Source: an uncultured bacterium (lineage in GTDB: Bacteria > Verrucomicrobiota > Kiritimatiellia > RFP12 > UBA1067). From it: DNA of 40,199 nt. Below are positions 2,515-28,079 of the stretch, one piece after another; the first letter of the stretch is position 1, and each line of letters begins with the position of its first letter. The stretch lies in contig CADAKF010000008.1 in the NCBI GenBank assembly GCA_902788415.1, forward strand, positions 1 through 40,199. The letters are read 5' to 3'. Both the position numbers and the translations under genes were made by a program. The notes beneath the pieces are model-generated. The model was not told where the DNA came from and ran no database searches. It saw only the letters and a list, made by a program, of their open reading frames with translations.

Positions 2515-3051
2515 TTAGGCGACCTTCTTGCCCTGTTTGCGGCGGATGTGCTCGCCGACGTACTTGATGCCCTTGCCCTTGTAGGGTTCGGCCGGATAGT
2601 ACGAGCGGATGCGGGCGGCGGCTTCGCCGACCATCTGCTTGTCGATGCCCTTGACGGTCACCTGAAGTCCGTCGTTCTCGACCGTCACCGTCAGACCCTC
2701 GGGGATCGTGAAGATCTTCGGGGAGGCGAAGCCCAGCGTCAGCGCGAGCTCCTTGCCCTTGACGACGGCCTTGAAGCCGGTGCCCTCAATGGAGAGCTGC
2801 TTCTGGTAGCCAGCGGACACGCCGATCACATTGGCGTTGATCAGCGCGCGGGCGAGGCCGTGGAAGTTGCCGAGATTGTAGTCGTCGGCGCACTCGACGA
2901 TAATGTTACCGTCCTCCACCTTCGCCGTGATGCCGTCATGCATCGTATAGGAAAGCTCGCCGAGCTTCCCCTTGACCGTCACCTTCTGACCCGCGATCGT
3001 GGCCGTGACGCCATCCGCGAGCTTGACGGGTTCTTTACCGATTCGAGACAT
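2515..3051 (-). CDS. rplF: 50S ribosomal protein L6
   Basis: MSRIGKEP, PAEPYKGKGIKY. Confidence 0.98.
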   Translation of the reverse strand: MSRIGKEPVKLADGVTATIAGQKVTVKGKLGELSYTMHDGITAKVEDGNIIVECADDYNLGNFHGLARALINANVIGVSAGYQKQLSIEGTGFKAVVKGKELALTLGFASPKIFTIPEGLTVTVENDGLQVTVKGIDKQMVGEAAARIRSYYPAEPYKGKGIKYVGEHIRRKQGKKVA

Positions 3052-3066
3052 TGTCCTTGCTCCTAA

Positions 3067-3459
3067 TTAAGCGACAGTGCAAATGAGTTCTCCGCCGACC
3101 TTCGCCTTCTTCGCCTCCGCGCCGGACATAATGCCCTTGGAGGTGGAGAGGATGGCGAGGCCCATGCCGTCGAGGACGGCCGGGATCTCGGGGACCGAAA
3201 CGAATTTCCGGAGACCGGGCTTCGAGATGCGCTTCAACTCGGTGATGGCGGGAACCGCCTTCGCCGTGTACTTGAGCGTGATCACGAGCTTCTTCGGGAA
3301 TTCGGACGTCGTGACGCAGTCGGCGATGTAGCCGGCTTCCTTCATGACGCGGGCGATCTCGCCCTTGAGATTGCTGGCAGGCGTCTGCACGGAGAAAAGG
3401 CGAGCCTTCAGTCCGTTGCGGATCGTCGTGAGCATATCGGAAATGGGATCGATAGTCAT
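3067..3459 (-). CDS. rpsH: 30S ribosomal protein S8
   Basis: DPISDMLTTIRN, SKPGLR, STSKGIM, GGELIC. Confidence 0.98.
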   Translation of the reverse strand: MTIDPISDMLTTIRNGLKARLFSVQTPASNLKGEIARVMKEAGYIADCVTTSEFPKKLVITLKYTAKAVPAITELKRISKPGLRKFVSVPEIPAVLDGMGLAILSTSKGIMSGAEAKKAKVGGELICTVA

Positions 3460-21595: not shown

Positions 21596-22450
21596 TCACC
21601 GAACTATTTGCATAGTTCGATCCTTTCCTTTATCGCTGTCACGAAGCCTTGTAAGATCTGGAATCCGGCGGCACCATACATCGTAATCTTTCTCGTATTC
21701 AATCCTTCTCCTCTTGGACAACTCCAGAAACGCCTTAGTTGAATCGACACCAACAAACTTACGCCCAATCAGATTTGCCGCAATTCCTGTAGTTGAACTA
21801 CCCGCGAACGGGTCAAGCACAAGCGCATTTGCCTCCGTACTTGCAAGTAGTGCTCGAACAACCAATGATAGCGGCTTTTGAGTCGGATGCTTCCCACACG
21901 ATTTCTCCCAGCGACCGATAGCCGGCAGTCGCCAGACATCCGTCATCTGCCGATCCCCTGCCAATCGGCGCATAAGATCGTAGTTGTAGTAATGCGGAAC
22001 TCTCTTTTGCTTTCGAGCCCAAAGCAATATCTCCGTGGAATGCGTAAAGAAACGGCAACTCAAATTTGGCGGCGGATTCGTTTTCTGCCAAATGACTGAA
22101 TTGAGAATTCTAAAATCCAACTCCGATAGGACAGTTGCAATAGAAAAAATGTTATGGAACGTACCACAAACCCAAATCGTGCCGGATTCCGAAAGCCGCT
22201 CCCGGCAGGATTTTATCCATTGAAAGTTAAATTCCGTATCCGCTTTCAAGCCACGAGACTTATCCCATGCTCCTTTGTTCACAGACACCTGCTTGCCCGC
22301 TTGGACCGAAAAACCGTCATTCGACAGAAAGTATGGTGGATCGGCAAAAACCACGTCAAACAAGCAAGACGACAATCTCGGGACAACCTCCCGACAATCT
22401 CCCTTGTAAAGACTAAAGTCCCCCTTCGTCGTCCTGTAATACGGTCTCAT
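21596..22450 (-). CDS. dpnA: Beta-class N6-adenine DNA methyltransferase, DpnA/M2.MboI-like
   Basis: FADPPYFLSN.G, VSVNKGAWD, HPTQKP, LDPFAGSSTTG. Confidence 0.92.
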   Translation of the reverse strand: MRPYYRTTKGDFSLYKGDCREVVPRLSSCLFDVVFADPPYFLSNDGFSVQAGKQVSVNKGAWDKSRGLKADTEFNFQWIKSCRERLSESGTIWVCGTFHNIFSIATVLSELDFRILNSVIWQKTNPPPNLSCRFFTHSTEILLWARKQKRVPHYYNYDLMRRLAGDRQMTDVWRLPAIGRWEKSCGKHPTQKPLSLVVRALLASTEANALVLDPFAGSSTTGIAANLIGRKFVGVDSTKAFLELSKRRRIEYEKDYDVWCRRIPDLTRLRDSDKGKDRTMQIVR

Positions 22451-22456
22451 GAGAGA

Positions 22457-23302
22457 TCACACAAAAAGTGTGGCTGCAATTCCGCCTTCAAGTTCTTTAA
22501 TGTTGTAGAGGGTAGGAAGAACTTCAAATGTTTCACGTAGATTTTGCCTCGCGCTTCTCCACCCAGCACCATCCGTAAACCAAACGAACTTGAATCCCGC
22601 AATATCACGTGCCTCAATTGCCAGCATCTTATAACTACGTGCCGTCTCGTTCAACTTCGACCCGCTGCTTCCGTAGAAATTCGTTTCAATCGCATAAACG
22701 CATGTTGATGTATGCACAACAAAATCAAAGCGCTTTTCCGTTCGTCCAGTGTTTGTCAACGACGACAAGTCAATACCCCAACGGTAACGAACCTCGCTGG
22801 CATACATTTCTTTGTAGTATTCCAATCGTGCCTTCTGAAGATACGACTCGACAAGATCTTCCATCAAATGCCCGCCACGATTCTTGCGCCCGTTTGAATC
22901 CAAGCCGGTTTCAACCCCCAAAACATAATCATAGAGATTATTGACTATATGACGCGACATCAAATCAAACAACCCCGTCTTTCGCATGAAGAGACAGTAT
23001 TCATCCGCACTATGCCGTATACGATCAAAACGATAAAGCCCGCCCGTTTCATTATCGACAGCGTATATTTCATGTTCCCGAACAGCAATCAAAATCGGAA
23101 CAACGGATATTATCGACGGATAGCGTGTCAGCAATGCCTTAAATTCCAATTCAACATCTTGACGTCCAATAAGCGAATTTAACAGATGCAACTCCGCCCT
23201 GTAACGTTCTGCGTTTGCCACGACCTTGTCGAAATCAATGTAATAGTCATAACTTGAAATGCTGTCACGGAATTGCGCCAGCCAAGTGTCGAAATCTCTC
23301 AT
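22457..23302 (-). CDS. dpnB: DpnII/MboI-type GATC restriction endonuclease
   Basis: GVETGLDSNGRKNRGG, KRFDFV, IETNFY...GSKLNETARSY, WFTDG.GW. Confidence 0.93.
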   Translation of the reverse strand: MRDFDTWLAQFRDSISSYDYYIDFDKVVANAERYRAELHLLNSLIGRQDVELEFKALLTRYPSIISVVPILIAVREHEIYAVDNETGGLYRFDRIRHSADEYCLFMRKTGLFDLMSRHIVNNLYDYVLGVETGLDSNGRKNRGGHLMEDLVESYLQKARLEYYKEMYASEVRYRWGIDLSSLTNTGRTEKRFDFVVHTSTCVYAIETNFYGSSGSKLNETARSYKMLAIEARDIAGFKFVWFTDGAGWRSARQNLRETFEVLPTLYNIKELEGGIAATLFV

Positions 23303-23306
23303 ACAA

Positions 23307-24302
23307 CTACTCCTTATAATTTCGAATGGCCAGCTCTGAGATCTTACCGCGGCCGTCGGACTTTGAATTGATCATCCGACTCGCCGAGACACGATGAATG
23401 TCAAACCCTTTGAATATCTCCTCGAAAAACATATCGTTCGGGTTAGCATTATGCGGATCCGAGTTGGACAGCAACCACTGATGTCCGTCCTTATCTAACA
23501 GCCGACAAAAATCGGCCAGCCGCTTCTGCTGTTCGTCACCAAAACCTTCTTTTGAATAAGCCGTAAAACTCGCCGTCTGCGTCAAAGGTCGGTATGGTGG
23601 ATCGAAGTAATAGAAGGCACGCCCCTTTACATGCTTCCCGACTTCTTCAAAATCACCATTCAGAATCTCAACCTTTTGAAGAAGTTTACTATCTGCGCGA
23701 ATCGTCTCCTCATCACAAATCAGGGGCTTCACCGCCTTCCCGAACGGGACATTGTAAAATCCTTTTGAATTCACACGATAAAGCCCATTAAAACACGTTC
23801 GATTCAAAAAGATGAACAGTGCCGCCGTTTCAACATCCCCTGCGTTCCTTGTGTTGTAGCGTTCTCGTTTCGCCAGAAAAAACTGCTTGCGTCCATCTTC
23901 GGTCAGGCATGCGTAAAACGCTTTCTGCATTTTAGACAGTTCATGGATCAATTCATCGGGACAATCGCGAATCGCCTTATAGGTTTTGACTAGATCGCCA
24001 TTCAAGTCATTCACGACTGCATGCGTTATATTCGTGTAATTCGACAACATGTAGAAGAGCATTGCTCCACCGCCAACGAACGGCTCGACATAGACGAGGC
24101 CCTGCCGATCTTTAAGGCCATTGGGCAACAACGCCGATAGTTGCTCCAGCAACTGCCCCTTGCCACCGGCCCACTTAATAAACGGCTTCGCCTGCACCTT
24201 CTCACCTTCCGCACACAAACAGGAGGCAAGTGTTATTCCGACAAAGCAAAGGATATGTGCCAAGCTTCGCAAGAAGCGACACGAATTACCTCTGTCTTTC
24301 AT
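23307..24302 (-). CDS. dpnM: Alpha-class Dam-type (D12) adenine methyltransferase, DpnM-like
   Basis: KPFIKWAGGK, EPFVGGG, FNGLYRVN, DPPY; start ATG 24302 (GGAGG at 8 nt) or GTG 24197. Confidence 0.93.
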   Translation of the reverse strand: MKDRGNSCRFLRSLAHILCFVGITLASCLCAEGEKVQAKPFIKWAGGKGQLLEQLSALLPNGLKDRQGLVYVEPFVGGGAMLFYMLSNYTNITHAVVNDLNGDLVKTYKAIRDCPDELIHELSKMQKAFYACLTEDGRKQFFLAKRERYNTRNAGDVETAALFIFLNRTCFNGLYRVNSKGFYNVPFGKAVKPLICDEETIRADSKLLQKVEILNGDFEEVGKHVKGRAFYYFDPPYRPLTQTASFTAYSKEGFGDEQQKRLADFCRLLDKDGHQWLLSNSDPHNANPNDMFFEEIFKGFDIHRVSASRMINSKSDGRGKISELAIRNYKE

Positions 24303-24349
24303 CACCATTCCCTCCAGACGCGAATCGCCGCCGGGGAATTCCGATACAG

Positions 24350-24506
24350 AAAAAGGCGCGCCCCTTCCCCTGTACTCAGCGGTAGCCCTTGCAGAGGCCT
24401 GTCAGAATACAGGAAGAAGGAACGCGCCTTGTGCATTACTGCACATCGGCGCGTTCCCGCAACCATGCCGTTCTGACAGTGAAAAACCTGCAAGTATTTC
24501 CGCTGA
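24350..24506 (-). ncRNA. Structured cis RNA: rod hairpin with an alternative terminator upstream of the R-M operon
   Basis: Five nested stems 24376-24506 plus a mutually exclusive ~22-bp stem with U5 tail (24350-24430); G-U pairs favour the minus strand. Confidence 0.65.
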
Positions 24507-24669
24507 ACGTCGTGTTTGCGTAAACGCAAAAATCAACTGATGCGGTCGGGGGTGGAGCGGGGACGGAGTCGCTTGCGGCTTGTATGCGGCAGGCGTTCCG
24601 CCTGTCCCGTCAGTTCCCAACCTATGGTCCCTACTCACCCGCCCGAAGAATGGGTTTCAGGATGGGAAT

Positions 24670-24678
24670 AGTATACCA
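24670..24678 (-). promoter_or_regulatory. Extended -10 promoter for the R-M leader
   Basis: TGgTATACT on the minus strand. Confidence 0.55.
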
Positions 24679-24739
24679 AAAGTTGTCGCGGGGTGTCGGA
24701 CACGCTGCGCCAATTTTTTGCGCGTGTCGTTTCGCTCAG

Positions 24740-25306
24740 CTACTTCGCCCGACCGTAGGGCGTGGCCGAAGTTTCGCCGGGCATCGCGCCAAAGCCAATC
24801 TTGCGGCGAGGAGTGTCGGGTACAGAAAGCTGCTTGACCAGATAATTCATGCCGCCTTTGATCTGCTTGATGTTGCCTTCCGCGACATCCATGCGACGCT
24901 TCAGCATGGCAATCTCCCGCACATCCTCAACACGCTTCAGGAGCATTTCCCGCAACACACGCGTCGCCCATTGGCGGAAACGAGTGCCCTCAAAAGACTT
25001 CACGCGGTAGCCGACTGAAATGACGACATCAAGATTATAAAGCGCAACCGGTCTGCCACCAACTTCAGAGGTTTTATGCAAAATTTGCATAAAACCCTCT
25101 TTCGGCAATTCTCCTTCCTTGAACACATTACTGATATGTCTCGCGATGACCGACTGATCTCTTCCGAACAATCGACACATTTGGTCTTGGGTCAGCCAGA
25201 CGGTCTCACCGTCGGTCTTGACTTCCATCTTGACGTTCTCACTCTGCTTGTATACTACTATCCGCTTCTGCTCGCAGATTCGATTGACTCTCATTTCATC
25301 TTTCAT
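24740..25306 (-). CDS. RhuM-family protein
   Basis: ETVWLTQDQM..LF, HISNVFKEGEL, YNLDVVISVGYRVKS..GTRFRQWAT; C-terminal coiled coil and RKIGF. Confidence 0.9.
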   Translation of the reverse strand: MKDEMRVNRICEQKRIVVYKQSENVKMEVKTDGETVWLTQDQMCRLFGRDQSVIARHISNVFKEGELPKEGFMQILHKTSEVGGRPVALYNLDVVISVGYRVKSFEGTRFRQWATRVLREMLLKRVEDVREIAMLKRRMDVAEGNIKQIKGGMNYLVKQLSVPDTPRRKIGFGAMPGETSATPYGRAK

Positions 25307-25328
25307 AACAGCCCTTTCTTTCGTCTTA

Positions 25329-28079
25329 TCAGATCTTCGTCGTTCGCCTTGCCCTCGCGAAGAGAATCGCACGCAACCGCCTTTCGTATTCGTCCGGCAA
25401 ATCCCTTTTCTCGAGAATCGCACGGATCGTCTCCTCGTGCTCATCGTCGGCAACGAACTGCAACCGGATAAAATCGGTCGACGCACCTCGAACGACGCCG
25501 TTCCAGCGCGTAATTCCCTGCGAGTCAAGGCAGGTCGCCGCATCAAGGCGGAACGTTCCCGAGCGATGATAGACAAAATCGCCAATCGCCGCACGAAGTT
25601 CCAATTGTCTTTCAGGCGCACCCAGATGTCCTGACTTGAAGTACTCCAGGGCGGCACGATGGTCGCGCTTTTTCCGAGAGGTGTGCGCCGCCTGTCGGAC
25701 ACATTCGATTGTCTCACTGTCGTAGACGCAGGCATTTTGCAAACAGCCGATCGCCGTCTCGGCATAATCGCCTTTGGCAAAAGCGAGCCACCGTCCCCTC
25801 GCTTCGTCTCGACTCGGATGATGCCGAAGCGTCTTGAGCGCCATGCGCACGACCGGACCTACCTTTGAAGCGAGCGCCGACTCGACAACTTCCATTGGAC
25901 ATCGCCCTTCGGCCTTCGCCTCGGCCAGCACCTCCCATTGATTCAACCAATCTGACGACAGGTCTTCTCCCCGCGCACGACGAAGATAGTAACCCGAATA
26001 GCCAAAGCGAAAGCATTCGCCCAATCCCCGCCAAATGCCACCCATCCCGCATCCCAGCAGCGTCAGATGCCGTTTCGCTCGGCTCATCGCCACATATAAA
26101 AGGCGTTGCGCTTCATCCCGATCCGCACCAGGCCCCCCTTCGGACATCTCCCCCGCGCCAGGAATGACCACGGCATCAAACTGACGCCCCTTCGCCTTGT
26201 GGACGGTCGAGATGACGATCTTCTCGTCTCCGGCCAGCAAATCGGCTTCCTTCAACTTGGACAGCTTCTGTCCGTCTTCGGAAAGGACTTGTGCAAACGG
26301 CCTTTCCTCCTTCACATAGATCACGTCGACATAGCGGAAGAAAATCTCCATGCGCCGCAAGGCATACAGCCGAGCCTCATCCGCCGTCAACTCGCGATGG
26401 AGTTCCTCTTCCATCGCCCTTTTCTCCGGAACTAACTCGCGGATGGAATACCGCAGGACCTTGCCGAGCGCCGCTTCGGCAAAAACGGAAAACAACACGC
26501 GAAAATCAACCCTGCCGCCGAGGCGAGGCAAAACCGCATCAACAGCGGGCTTGAGCCGTCTGCGCAGCGAAGACAGCACAGGACGATTCCACCACGCCCA
26601 CTGACGCGCGCGATTCCACGGATGCGGAACGCTCGGTACGGGATCCTTCAACCCGAAAAGCGACATCGGATTCCATCCCGACGCAAACATGCCGCGGACA
26701 AAATACCGCGCCGCCGAACTGCGGTAGACGCCGTCCGCAAACCGCCGCACGAGCGACGCCCAGGCCGTCCGCGGCGGCTTTTCGGCAAAGATCGAGACGA
26801 AGGCCAGGAAGTCGCGCATCGGCGGATAGGAGAACAGATCAAGGCCCGAGACCTTGACCGTCCGATAGCCGAGTCTGCGCACAAGCCTTTCGCATGCATC
26901 GGCCTCACGGTTCGTGCGGACGAGAATCGCCACGTTTTCGGCGACCTCGTCCCCCAGCAGATGACGGACGCGCTCCAAGACGGCTTTCGGTCCGTCCGCA
27001 GGCGACAACGTCACTTCACCGTTCGCACGGGCGACGTCGGAAGGTGCCGGCAGGAACTCCCAGTTAGAACGCAACACGTCCAGCGAATATCGCATCAGGA
27101 TCTCCAACAGCAGCGGCGCTGCGCGGAAGTTCGTCCTGAAGTAATGACGCTCGCAATCGGCGACAGCCGTCGCAAACGAACTCGCCGAAGCTCCGAGAAA
27201 AGAGAAGATCGACTGTTCGACGTCGCCGAAGTAAACGCTGACTGCACGGGACGACGTCAACTCCTTGACGATCCGCCACTGAAGCGGATTCAAGTCCTGC
27301 ACTTCGTCGATCTGGATCCAGTCAAAGCGTCGATCGTCTTCAATCGGATTCTGCGTCAGATACAGGAACGTCTCGTTGATGAGATCGTCGAAGTCGACCG
27401 ACCGAAACTTGCGCTTAAGTCCCGAATAGGCCAGCTCAAGCGCCGCGACAATTCCACGGTCAAGAAAGACGGACATCGTCATCGGCACCTGCCGGAGATA
27501 GCACGACGGAATGCCCAGTTTCCACTGATGCGCGATCAGCACCGCGGAAAGGATGTCCGGGTACGGACTTCTGTCGTCCTTCTCGCAATCCGCAAAGTAC
27601 TCCTCGACAATCTCCGAAAGCGCAATACACATCGGTTCGCAAATACCCTTGACCGTCGCCACGACGCTGACACCATGCGTTTTCTTCAAATCGGCAGTTC
27701 TCCCCTCTCGCAACTCCTCGCGCAACACATCTGTCACCTCTCGGATGAAATCAAGCTGCTGCGACTCGTCCAGCACATACTTGCCAGGATGGATCCGCCG
27801 AACCGACAGCAAGAACCGATGGCAGATGTGATGGAGATTGCCGACATCGGGGAGCGCGCAGTCGGGTCCCGCCGCGCCGGAGACCCGATCGCGCATCTCG
27901 AACGCCGCGCGGTTCGTGAACGTCGCACACAGCATCCGCTTTGGATCGACGCCCGACGAAAGCGCACGGAGAATCCGCTGCGACAGCATCTCCGTCTTCC
28001 CCGATCCCGGCGGAGCCAGCACGAGGTGGCGCCCCGCGACGAGATCAACGACGGCGAGCTGTTCGTCCGTAAGCGTCAT
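25329..28079 (-). CDS. UvrD/Rep-family SF1 helicase with long C-terminal extension
   Basis: APPGSGKT, TFTNRAA, IDEVQD, GDVEQSIF, STVHKAKG.QF, LYVAMSRAK. Confidence 0.92.
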   Translation of the reverse strand: MTLTDEQLAVVDLVAGRHLVLAPPGSGKTEMLSQRILRALSSGVDPKRMLCATFTNRAAFEMRDRVSGAAGPDCALPDVGNLHHICHRFLLSVRRIHPGKYVLDESQQLDFIREVTDVLREELREGRTADLKKTHGVSVVATVKGICEPMCIALSEIVEEYFADCEKDDRSPYPDILSAVLIAHQWKLGIPSCYLRQVPMTMSVFLDRGIVAALELAYSGLKRKFRSVDFDDLINETFLYLTQNPIEDDRRFDWIQIDEVQDLNPLQWRIVKELTSSRAVSVYFGDVEQSIFSFLGASASSFATAVADCERHYFRTNFRAAPLLLEILMRYSLDVLRSNWEFLPAPSDVARANGEVTLSPADGPKAVLERVRHLLGDEVAENVAILVRTNREADACERLVRRLGYRTVKVSGLDLFSYPPMRDFLAFVSIFAEKPPRTAWASLVRRFADGVYRSSAARYFVRGMFASGWNPMSLFGLKDPVPSVPHPWNRARQWAWWNRPVLSSLRRRLKPAVDAVLPRLGGRVDFRVLFSVFAEAALGKVLRYSIRELVPEKRAMEEELHRELTADEARLYALRRMEIFFRYVDVIYVKEERPFAQVLSEDGQKLSKLKEADLLAGDEKIVISTVHKAKGRQFDAVVIPGAGEMSEGGPGADRDEAQRLLYVAMSRAKRHLTLLGCGMGGIWRGLGECFRFGYSGYYLRRARGEDLSSDWLNQWEVLAEAKAEGRCPMEVVESALASKVGPVVRMALKTLRHHPSRDEARGRWLAFAKGDYAETAIGCLQNACVYDSETIECVRQAAHTSRKKRDHRAALEYFKSGHLGAPERQLELRAAIGDFVYHRSGTFRLDAATCLDSQGITRWNGVVRGASTDFIRLQFVADDEHEETIRAILEKRDLPDEYERRLRAILFARARRTTKI

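Follow-up and report, generated by a model that had tools for sequence, protein, structure and literature searches.

What does a gap of about 430-441 nt do in front of a DpnII-type restriction-modification (R-M) operon in an uncultured bacterium of the class Kiritimatiellia? The stretch of DNA analysed, here called the window, covers 40,199 nt of contig CADAKF010000008.1 (assembly GCA_902788415.1, positions 1 to 40,199 of the forward strand), and the features described below lie on its minus strand. A preliminary description, made from the letters of this DNA alone, had proposed that the leader RNA of the operon folds either into a rod-like hairpin or into a terminator, and that an attenuator or antisense-controlled switch of this kind gates the R-M cassette. 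Two exclusive and covarying folds were recovered in the present analysis, whereas a role in delaying the nuclease gained partial support at best and a control by antisense RNA gained none. The leader of the dpn operon (about 355-360 nt) is likely a cis-acting transcription attenuator and one member of a class-wide family of modular cassettes, each made up of a promoter and a structured leader. Judged by sequence comparison, the element is a previously undescribed, widespread and strongly covarying family of two-state leader RNAs.

The rod (24376..24506), which represents the antiterminator fold, is built from five nested stems, all perfectly complementary on the minus strand as originally described: P1 (24500-06/24376-82, 7 bp), P2 (24488-94/24388-94, 7 bp), P3 (24471-79/24399-407, 9 bp), an apical hairpin of seg1 (24448-58) with seg2 (24448-57/24419-28, 10 bp), and a tip hairpin at 24430-45 (24440-45/24430-35, 6 bp). 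RNAfold returned this rod as both the minimum free energy (MFE) and the centroid fold. The 181 nt of 24340-24520 folded at -91.2 kcal/mol versus -58.3 ± 4.2 kcal/mol in 200 dinucleotide shuffles, none of which was as good (z = -7.79), and the folding z-score of the whole 441-nt gap was -5.56.

The pyrimidine-rich 3′ arm of the apical hairpin, seg2 (24408..24428), is the shared switching strand, with seg1 as its partner in the rod and seg3 (24355-24374) as its partner in the terminator. The alternative stem between 24408-24428 and 24355-24374 comprises about 20 pairs, including four G·U pairs and one bulge, and is followed by TTTTT (24350-24354), located 42-48 nt before the two candidate ATG codons of dpnM (24308 and 24302). 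Together with seg2, the stretch of seg3 and U-tract (24350..24374) makes an intrinsic-terminator fold, in which the GC-rich stem base GGCGCG/CGCGCC runs directly into the T-run. In the MFE fold, a seg3:seg4 hairpin (24344..24375; 24363-75 with 24344-56) buries the U-tract in the rod state; RNAalifold predicted this hairpin from 25 copies with compensatory changes in 5 of 10 pairs, and its cognate preference (-12.4 versus -9.6 kcal/mol) was weaker than that of the other pairings. Rod, alternative stem and leader length were in this way confirmed from the sequence, by folding and by promoter search.

Covariation among homologues, which the preliminary description had proposed to look for, was present in both folds against shuffled controls, and both folds were kept by compensatory change across many copies of the element. 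The rod was assessed in a MAFFT alignment of 26 copies that was not fitted to the structure: 93.2% of the cells paired versus 75.6 ± 1.0% with shuffled partners, 20 of the 34 pairs changed on both sides, and 154 double-change cells were counted versus 53.6 in shuffles, with none of 500 shuffles reaching any of the five measures. Controls slid by 1-3 columns paired at 37-49%. The terminator alignment extended from seg2 to the T-tract, with seg1 omitted so that it could not compete, and contained 75 of 90 distinct sequences, after 2 near-duplicates and 13 sequences with long insertions or atypical lengths had been left out, a choice made before the count. From these 75 sequences RNAalifold predicted the long-range seg2:seg3 stem with compensatory changes in 19 of 20 pairs; 91.9% of the cells paired (77.9 ± 0.7% in shuffles, 0/500), double-change cells numbered 267 (108 in shuffles, 0/500), and slid controls reached 41-62% pairing.

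Duplex energies, calculated free of any alignment for 97 distinct copies, gave the same picture. The seg2:seg3 duplex averaged -28.6 kcal/mol with its own partner versus -20.2 ± 0.4 kcal/mol when permuted, and the seg1:seg2 duplex -27.6 versus -20.8 ± 0.3 kcal/mol, with 0 of 2000 permutations as good in either case; against shuffled seg3, the seg2 duplex had a mean z-score of -5.2. One strand, seg2, pairs either with seg1 or with seg3, both pairings being cognate-specific and covarying, and the folds are mutually exclusive, as first claimed.

A further hairpin, H3 (24384..24399; 24396-99 with 24384-87), is formed within the 3′ strand of the rod and has the P2 3′ strand as its loop. H3 paired in 91% of the cells versus 66.6% in shuffles, with a covariation score of 0.605 versus 0.231 (0/500), and the rod 3′ strand alone folded into H3 in all 84 distinct copies; its changes on both sides were not distinctive, this measure being reached by 357 of 500 shuffles. 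Since the P2 3′ strand sits in the H3 loop, H3 may cap the terminator loop, or the read-through fold may be a four-way junction with a P2 loop-loop contact. The pairs of another hairpin, H5 in the 5′ strand (GAAAUA/UAUUUC), were almost invariant, so covariation neither supports nor rejects it.

The structure is read as RNA on the strand of the downstream gene, because G·U cells far outnumbered A·C cells (73 versus 7 in the rod and 328 versus 42 in the terminator). The earlier argument that the G-U pairs work on the transcribed strand alone applied to the alternative stem and, with much greater force, to the whole family, whereas the five rod stems of this copy are Watson-Crick paired and strand-neutral. 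The sole sigma-70-like site in 24000-25000 was a promoter with -35-like CCGACA, an 18-nt spacer and TG-extended -10 TATACT (24670..24699), which gives the predicted leader of about 355-360 nt, close to the ~360 nt first suggested. Its TGnTAyAmT motif aligned at the same place in relatives, and the strict promoter pattern occurred in 26 of 100 copies, while the controls gave 4 of 100 (opposite strand) and 1 of 93 (coding sequence downstream). From the promoter (24699-24670 in reading direction) the leader runs into a co-oriented gene, and a co-oriented open reading frame (ORF) within 450 nt was found in all 93 copies with downstream sequence, 70 of which had a Pfam match. No plus-strand promoter-like site for an antisense RNA was found in 24000-25000, and the antisense-controlled switch of the preliminary description thereby found no counterpart.

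Assembled contigs from RNA libraries (4 runs) were aligned to the locus. Contigs from three runs of one pig-gut study (X1, X5, X6) cover dpnM and parts of the leader and break inside the leader, which is what a repeat would lead one to expect. No contig spans 24350 by 31 letters on both sides, and assembled contigs cannot show RNA ends; they say nothing on termination or expression level and neither support nor weaken an attenuator. In a contig from another study (X4, low depth of 3.1, on 24341-24531), both rod flanks matched and 3 letters replaced 24390-24487. This relative keeps P1 and P2 and is without P3, seg1 and seg2, so the terminator could not form there.

The family was collected by successive searches. 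A DNA search of 41 related genomes returned a copy with 84% identity from a genome belonging to a different family, positioned ~40 nt before a type I hsdM gene and after a Fic gene, and the pairwise alignment contained double compensatory changes in P1, P2 and P3 with a nearly invariant inner core. Extending the DNA search to 319 genomes of the order gave matches in 26, and 26 copies with the full architecture were kept by eye; L029, L038, L010, L035 and L034 were dropped by eye for missing architecture, although L034 could be a diverged member. With a covariance model restricted to the rod (137 positions, 34 pairs; cut-off E ≤0.001), matches were obtained in 36 of the 151 genomes sampled from the class, at most 7 in any one of them. 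The genome of the window contained four copies, the one described here (C8) and those on C13, C121 and C10, of which BLAST recovered the window copy alone. Of 151 genomes drawn from the phylum, 20 were matched, every one labelled as the same class or closer, and the 101 genomes of families unique to this draw returned no match to the model. As far as sampled, the leader family is confined to one bacterial class.

For the working set, cmsearch over 100 loci with flanks gave 102 aligned copies. Of the 100 copies that extend far enough downstream, 91 have a T-run after seg3, and since seg3 and the T-run lie outside the rod model, they confirm the distant, low-scoring matches independently. A search for related loci by DpnM yielded 2 loci, both distant and of no use for the leader. 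Phage and plasmid collections gave no match; a pattern scan of IMG/VR produced 44 matches, about the number estimated by chance, and none of the 44 was confirmed by the covariance model.

Several copies show peculiar surroundings. Many class-level copies are cut off on their downstream side by a contig end 30-400 nt away (e.g. G364:C12, C21, C23 and C27; G367:C28; G158:C34). Either the leader or the gene family that follows it, often one of TSP3-repeat proteins, would seem to be repetitive enough to fragment assemblies. Two copies 2 kb apart were seen in one genome (L086, 401-551 and 2428-2579). At another locus (L061) a tRNA gene stands directly 5′ of the leader, with a SAM-I/IV riboswitch 1.4 kb away (1902-1974, 2978-3086); the tRNA gene hints at an island integrated at that site.

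The idea of a modular cis-acting RNA family, raised in the preliminary description, was borne out: the same leader, 85-87% identical, stands before unrelated genes, and similarity ends at the leader edges. Compared with the whole window, the closest relatives match across the leader alone. An 86%-identical leader precedes a C5 methyltransferase at L015, and dpnM/dpnII homologues with 68% identity at L025 carry a leader of a different subtype; like leader with other cargo, and like cargo with other leader, mean that the two recombine.

The cargo was defined as the longest co-oriented ORF of at least 80 codons starting within 450 nt, was identified by Pfam scan, and was tallied by hand for 93 copies, 9 of the 102 abutting a contig end; near-duplicates within genomes are included, so the counts are not independent. 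DNA methyltransferases (D12, C5, N6_Mtase/HsdM, N6_N4, EcoRI-type, Eco57I), a SacI nuclease or Mrr_cat_2/ResIII genes followed 26 copies, SNF2 helicases 3, MmeI-type methyltransferase matches below the cut-off 4, and dynamin/septin-like GTPases 2. Secreted or surface repeat proteins (TSP3_bac, Flg_new, BspA-type LRR, Laminin_G_3, RCC1, PEGA and others) followed 22 copies, envelope-modifying membrane enzymes (GtrA, Acyl_transf_3, MBOAT) 3, and other families 10, while 23 copies had no Pfam match downstream. Among the 30 best-scoring copies with an ORF (at least 92 bits, the subfamily of the window), 23 stood before R-M or helicase-nuclease genes. The four cargoes in the genome of the window were the dpn operon, an N6_N4 methyltransferase, an EcoRI-type methyltransferase, and a ResIII gene followed by an N6_N4 methyltransferase. 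This regulon suggests a common control of phage-facing genes, with R-M and defence in the near subfamily and surface and envelope functions in the distant ones. A switch that delays the nuclease during R-M establishment, as formerly considered, misfits it, given the lone helicase-nucleases, the GTPases and the distant surface-repeat and envelope cargo.

As an attenuator, the leader would act as follows. Transcription would start at the extended -10 promoter, at about 24662, and the RNA would fold into the rod or into a four-way junction, in which the tip hairpin locks seg2 against seg1. In the rod state the purine-rich seg3 would pair with the U-tract, no terminator would form, and RNA polymerase would enter dpnM. 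If the rod were blocked or opened, the seg2:seg3 stem (~20 bp), with H3 as its cap and UUUUU behind it, would stop transcription ~45 nt before the start codon. A trans-acting signal, either a small ligand or an RNA-binding protein recognising the conserved junction, would choose the fold. Termination and a choice made in trans are thus the parts of the model that go beyond the folds themselves.

The default state was approached by folding each copy with seg2 constrained to pair upstream only (rod state) or downstream only (terminator state). In the window copy the rod state had -88.2 and the terminator state -75.1 kcal/mol. Because nearest-neighbour energies favour the rod, the leader probably reads through by default, which makes a signal that promotes termination the most likely one according to these models. 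If the junction were held by tertiary contacts, nearest-neighbour energies would overrate the rod fold, and the junction, stabilised by a ligand, could then act as an ON switch.

Several points weigh against the attenuator. The predicted rod state was more stable by 14.6 ± 6.6 kcal/mol over the copies, and the terminator state won in 3 of 91; moreover, the tip hairpin forms first during synthesis, and the terminator is rarely expected without an additional factor. In 26 of 91 copies, mainly of distant subfamilies, seg3 has its own hairpin of -8 kcal/mol or better before the T-run. Such copies may terminate in either state, be constitutive terminators or follow a different logic. The remaining 65 copies, among them that of the window (local fold -1.5 kcal/mol), speak for the attenuator instead, since the T-run there has no strong hairpin before it apart from seg2:seg3. 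The genome of the window contains three further methyltransferase loci at which no leader was found within ~1.5 kb with filters off (best 10 bits). The RNA 3′ end at 24350, like termination itself, is a prediction, the RNA data being assembled contigs. Finally, a search for the effector, covering a leader peptide, CsrA, Hfq, NusG copies, c-di-GMP synthesis and a competitor for seg1, gave no positive candidate. L090, L070 and L104 are examples of the 26 copies in which seg3 has a hairpin of its own; the segment pairs with itself there in a GC-rich stem of 8-10 bp ahead of the T-run.

None of the candidates of this search was supported. An AUG precedes seg1 in 29 of the 33 best copies, but its frame was open for at least 30 codons in 10 of 29, versus 8 and 11 for the other frames; the next codon was a stop in 4 copies, the AUG was absent in many distant copies, and no Shine-Dalgarno (SD) sequence was seen. 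GGA motifs of the 5′ strand had pointed to CsrA, but none of 6 genomes was found to encode it, and Hfq was not found in the one genome searched (83% complete). A single NusG, with no paralogue, was present in G000 and in 4 of 5 motif-rich genomes. No GGDEF domain was found in 5 motif-bearing genomes, and c-di-GMP is therefore very unlikely as the ligand; a GEMM-I search gave no match, but the control genomes were equally silent. An upstream strand competing for seg1 was examined in 48 sequences, every second one of the unique set, and the cognate energy of -24.8 kcal/mol hardly differed from -24.1 kcal/mol when permuted, with 102 of 2000 permutations as good; by eye, the C-rich strand of the 5′ domain stays constant while seg1 changes.

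A more specific form of the attenuator can be entertained tentatively. The rod would be a compact four-way-junction aptamer, made of P1, P3 and two hairpins that kiss as ‘P2’, and would constitute a new riboswitch class, a small-molecule sensor switching the R-M and anti-phage, surface and envelope genes of the class together.

Processive antitermination elements, such as the put RNA of phage HK022 and the EAR element, offer a rather unlikely alternative, in which the rod, by binding RNA polymerase or a factor, would confer resistance to the following and later terminators, the terminator being constitutive and seg2:seg3 secondary. The rod is the thermodynamically dominant predicted fold, and the 26 of 91 copies with a self-contained GC-rich hairpin and T-run after the rod are expected to terminate in either fold, as such a model would have it. 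RfaH, LoaP and UpxY control accessory operons, and the regulon of the leader, accessory and probably horizontally acquired, resembles theirs. Left unexplained are the tracking of seg2 by seg3 through compensatory change in 19 of 20 pairs and the 65 copies in which the seg2:seg3 hairpin is the only one before the T-run, and the NusG results named above offer no paralogue to serve as the factor.

It is distinctly improbable that the element is an independent small RNA gene, whose free ~300-nt product acts in trans and merely lies beside defence and surface genes. Its own conserved promoter, a terminator-like 3′ end and several copies per genome would agree with such a gene, as would locus L050 (1190-1312 and 1501-1629, minus strand), where two tandem copies ~190 nt apart stand before a single Peptidase_M48 gene. 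A bystander is difficult to reconcile with the co-oriented ORF behind all 93 copies (70 with a Pfam match) and with conservation that extends beyond the T-tract as far as the ribosome site; the window copy has its U-run buried in the fold predicted to dominate, and the switching segments differ between copies of one genome, which argues against a shared target in trans.

A passive role, with the rod protecting the 5′ region of the mRNA or insulating translation without any switching, would suit a rod that is very stable and dominates the predicted ensemble, but is very improbable, since it has no need for a conserved second partner of seg2, an exactly placed U-tract, or an H3 incompatible with a continuous rod.

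A DNA-level element with an incidental RNA fold, be it an attC-like recombination hairpin, an invertible-promoter repeat or a miniature mobile element, is hardly credible. In its favour, the leader is modular, with unrelated genes behind it and homology that does not extend past its borders, a position near a contig end is common among the copies, as it is for repeats, and genes of these cargo kinds are often phase-variable in other bacteria. Against it, G·U exceeds A·C ~10:1 in the rod and 8:1 in the terminator as for a one-strand RNA, T-run and promoter keep a fixed orientation to the downstream gene, no strand-switch joints were seen in the aligned RNA-library contigs, the searches of phage, plasmid and viral collections gave no genuine copy (0/44 for the viral pattern matches), and GTTCAGC at the rod base misfits by eye the GTTRRRY of attC core sites (RYYYAAC/GTTRRRY), a linked integrase not having been searched for.

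The transcription attenuator, to which the balance returns, has well-known counterparts. T-box, PyrR and TRAP/trp leaders and riboswitch platforms are terminator/antiterminator attenuators, and the leader shares with them its position in the 5′ untranslated region, one strand common to exclusive helices, a U-run after the terminator, and covariation. It differs in using as antiterminator the tip of a long rod or junction, not a short helix by an aptamer, and in having no match in Rfam 15 and a regulon of defence and surface functions instead of metabolism. Against the 4227 families of Rfam 15 (cmscan in E-value mode, 23800-25200, E up to 10), chance-level matches only were obtained over the element, the best being mir-202 with 14.4 bits versus a gathering score of 51, and over the element in the loci of 20 relatives nothing appeared at E up to 1. 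The D12-methyl motif and the C4 and P4-CI RNAs, which had been named as the first relatives to consider, were absent from both sets of matches; the likeness lies in their being RNA motifs tied to D12 methyltransferases or to phage and plasmid immunity. Unlike the D12-methyl motif, the leader family precedes at least six Pfam families of methyltransferases as well as non-methyltransferase genes.

Regulation of R-M and defence is otherwise known through proteins (C proteins, WYL regulators) or antisense RNAs of single systems. Type II R-M operons are controlled by C proteins, methyltransferase autorepression or antisense RNAs, and like these the leader is a regulatory device upstream of an R-M operon; unlike C-protein and antisense controls, it is an RNA switch common to type I, IIG and III-like systems and to non-R-M genes. 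The WYL-domain regulators of the BrxR/CapW type are DNA-binding proteins upstream of many different defence systems. One module reused before diverse, unrelated defence systems is a trait the leader has in common with them, but it is a cis-acting RNA with its own promoter. Riboswitches for c-di-GMP-I (GEMM) occur in many copies per genome before adhesin and surface genes; the leader resembles them in being multi-copy before large surface proteins (in distant subfamilies) and in its terminator platform, but shows no sequence or structure match to them in the Rfam scans, and the GGDEF domain is missing from the motif-bearing genomes as given above.

In the literature searched on noncoding RNAs of the class, RNA motifs of R-M systems and surveys of structured RNAs, no such element was found, nor any structured leader RNA common to type I, II, IIG, III-like R-M, Mrr/ResIII, SNF2 and surface-variation genes. 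None of six relevant terms occurs in the main text of Fremin & Bhatt 2021 (PMC8040213); its supplements could list the motif without a name. The nearest general concept is that of mobile or reused promoters in prokaryotes (Nijveen et al. 2012, PMC3575422), which describes highly similar upstream regions before non-homologous genes within and between genomes, as is found here; the leader unit differs from what is presented there in being mainly a structured RNA of 200-350 nt with covarying helices, and so more than a promoter.

Around the core of rod and terminator, the leader of the window contains further conserved parts. Immediately 5′ of the rod, a P0 hairpin TTGCGT..ACGCAA (24516-24529) together with a conserved ACACGACGTTC run into the rod (24505..24529 as a whole) is conserved in 25-26 relatives, and the closing pair of P0 covaries (UA in 17, AU in 6). 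The 5′ domain (24540..24660) was examined in an alignment of 15 copies and consists of a first hairpin (24629-24654), which is a feature of the near subfamily, a conserved CATAGGTTGGGAAC (24613-24626), a variable hairpin (24557-24611) between this motif and the C-rich strand, and a conserved C-rich CCACCCCCGACCGCAT (24540-24555). Common to the near subfamily 5′ of the rod are the extended -10 promoter, the first hairpin, the CATAGGTYGGGAAC motif and the C-rich strand, which pairs with CATAGGTYGGGAAC across the variable hairpin. The long-range pairing is of GGTTGGG with CCCGACC, and 6 of the 11 pairs predicted from the 15 copies had compensatory changes, e.g. GGTCG/CGACC to GATCG/CGATC or GGCCG/CGGCC. 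Since 2 of the 4 copies in the genome of the window are without it, the 5′ domain is not part of the core. The distal leader (24309..24343) comprises a small hairpin (24331-43), a conserved CGGCGA and the SD sequence GGAGGG (24310-15), the last read from the sequence; the small hairpin and the GGCGGCGA motif after the T-tract recur in relatives, up to the ribosome site.

Just 5′ of the -35 region, and overlapping it, a hairpin-forming stretch (24678-24728, minus strand) has copies of 80-89% similarity on C37, C58 and C15 of the same genome and in one genome of the same genus; this may be a shared promoter context or a REP-like repeat.

The gene order on the minus strand is a UvrD-like helicase ORF (25329-28079), a RhuM-matching ORF (24740-25780), the gap, and the D12 operon. 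The regulated operon (21596..24308) encodes, according to Pfam, the D12 methyltransferase dpnM (23307-24308, E = 1.9e-59), the DpnII nuclease (22457-23302, E = 4e-104) and an N6_N4 methyltransferase (21596-22450, E = 5.4e-48), which substantiates the DpnII-type assignment made beforehand. Six ORFs in or across the leader gap had no Pfam match at E up to 0.1. No small helix-turn-helix gene of the C-protein kind was found by Pfam among these gap ORFs or within the operon, which holds methyltransferase, nuclease and methyltransferase only, and the statement that a C protein is lacking agrees with this.

Some observations concern the neighbouring reading frames. The D12 methyltransferase ORF has a ~40-codon N-terminal extension (24197-24308), its Pfam match beginning at residue 46, and the D12 homologue of L025 has a similar hydrophobic N-terminal extension. 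An ORF in the frame of the leader terminates with a TGA that overlaps the second ATG (24302) as TGATG, which may be chance in GC-rich DNA. The sole Pfam match of ORF 24740-25780 was a 41-residue piece of RhuM (profile positions 18-58 of 252), and some ~450 nt of this ORF coincide, in a different frame, with the end of the UvrD-like helicase ORF; it resembles the remnant of a gene or an ORF with a wrongly called start.

The leader family offers a clear natural case of a promoter-plus-attenuator module that is reused and recombines with different cargo. Provided that it is a true switch, one signal would coordinate the phage-facing portion of the genome in a gut and rumen lineage that has been little studied, and the leader would be a ready marker for defence and variable-surface loci in such genomes. 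It would equally be a large, well-covarying orphan RNA with more than 100 copies, for which a ligand or protein partner could be searched directly. Should the four-way-junction aptamer prove true, it would be the first known riboswitch-type signal governing defence islands.

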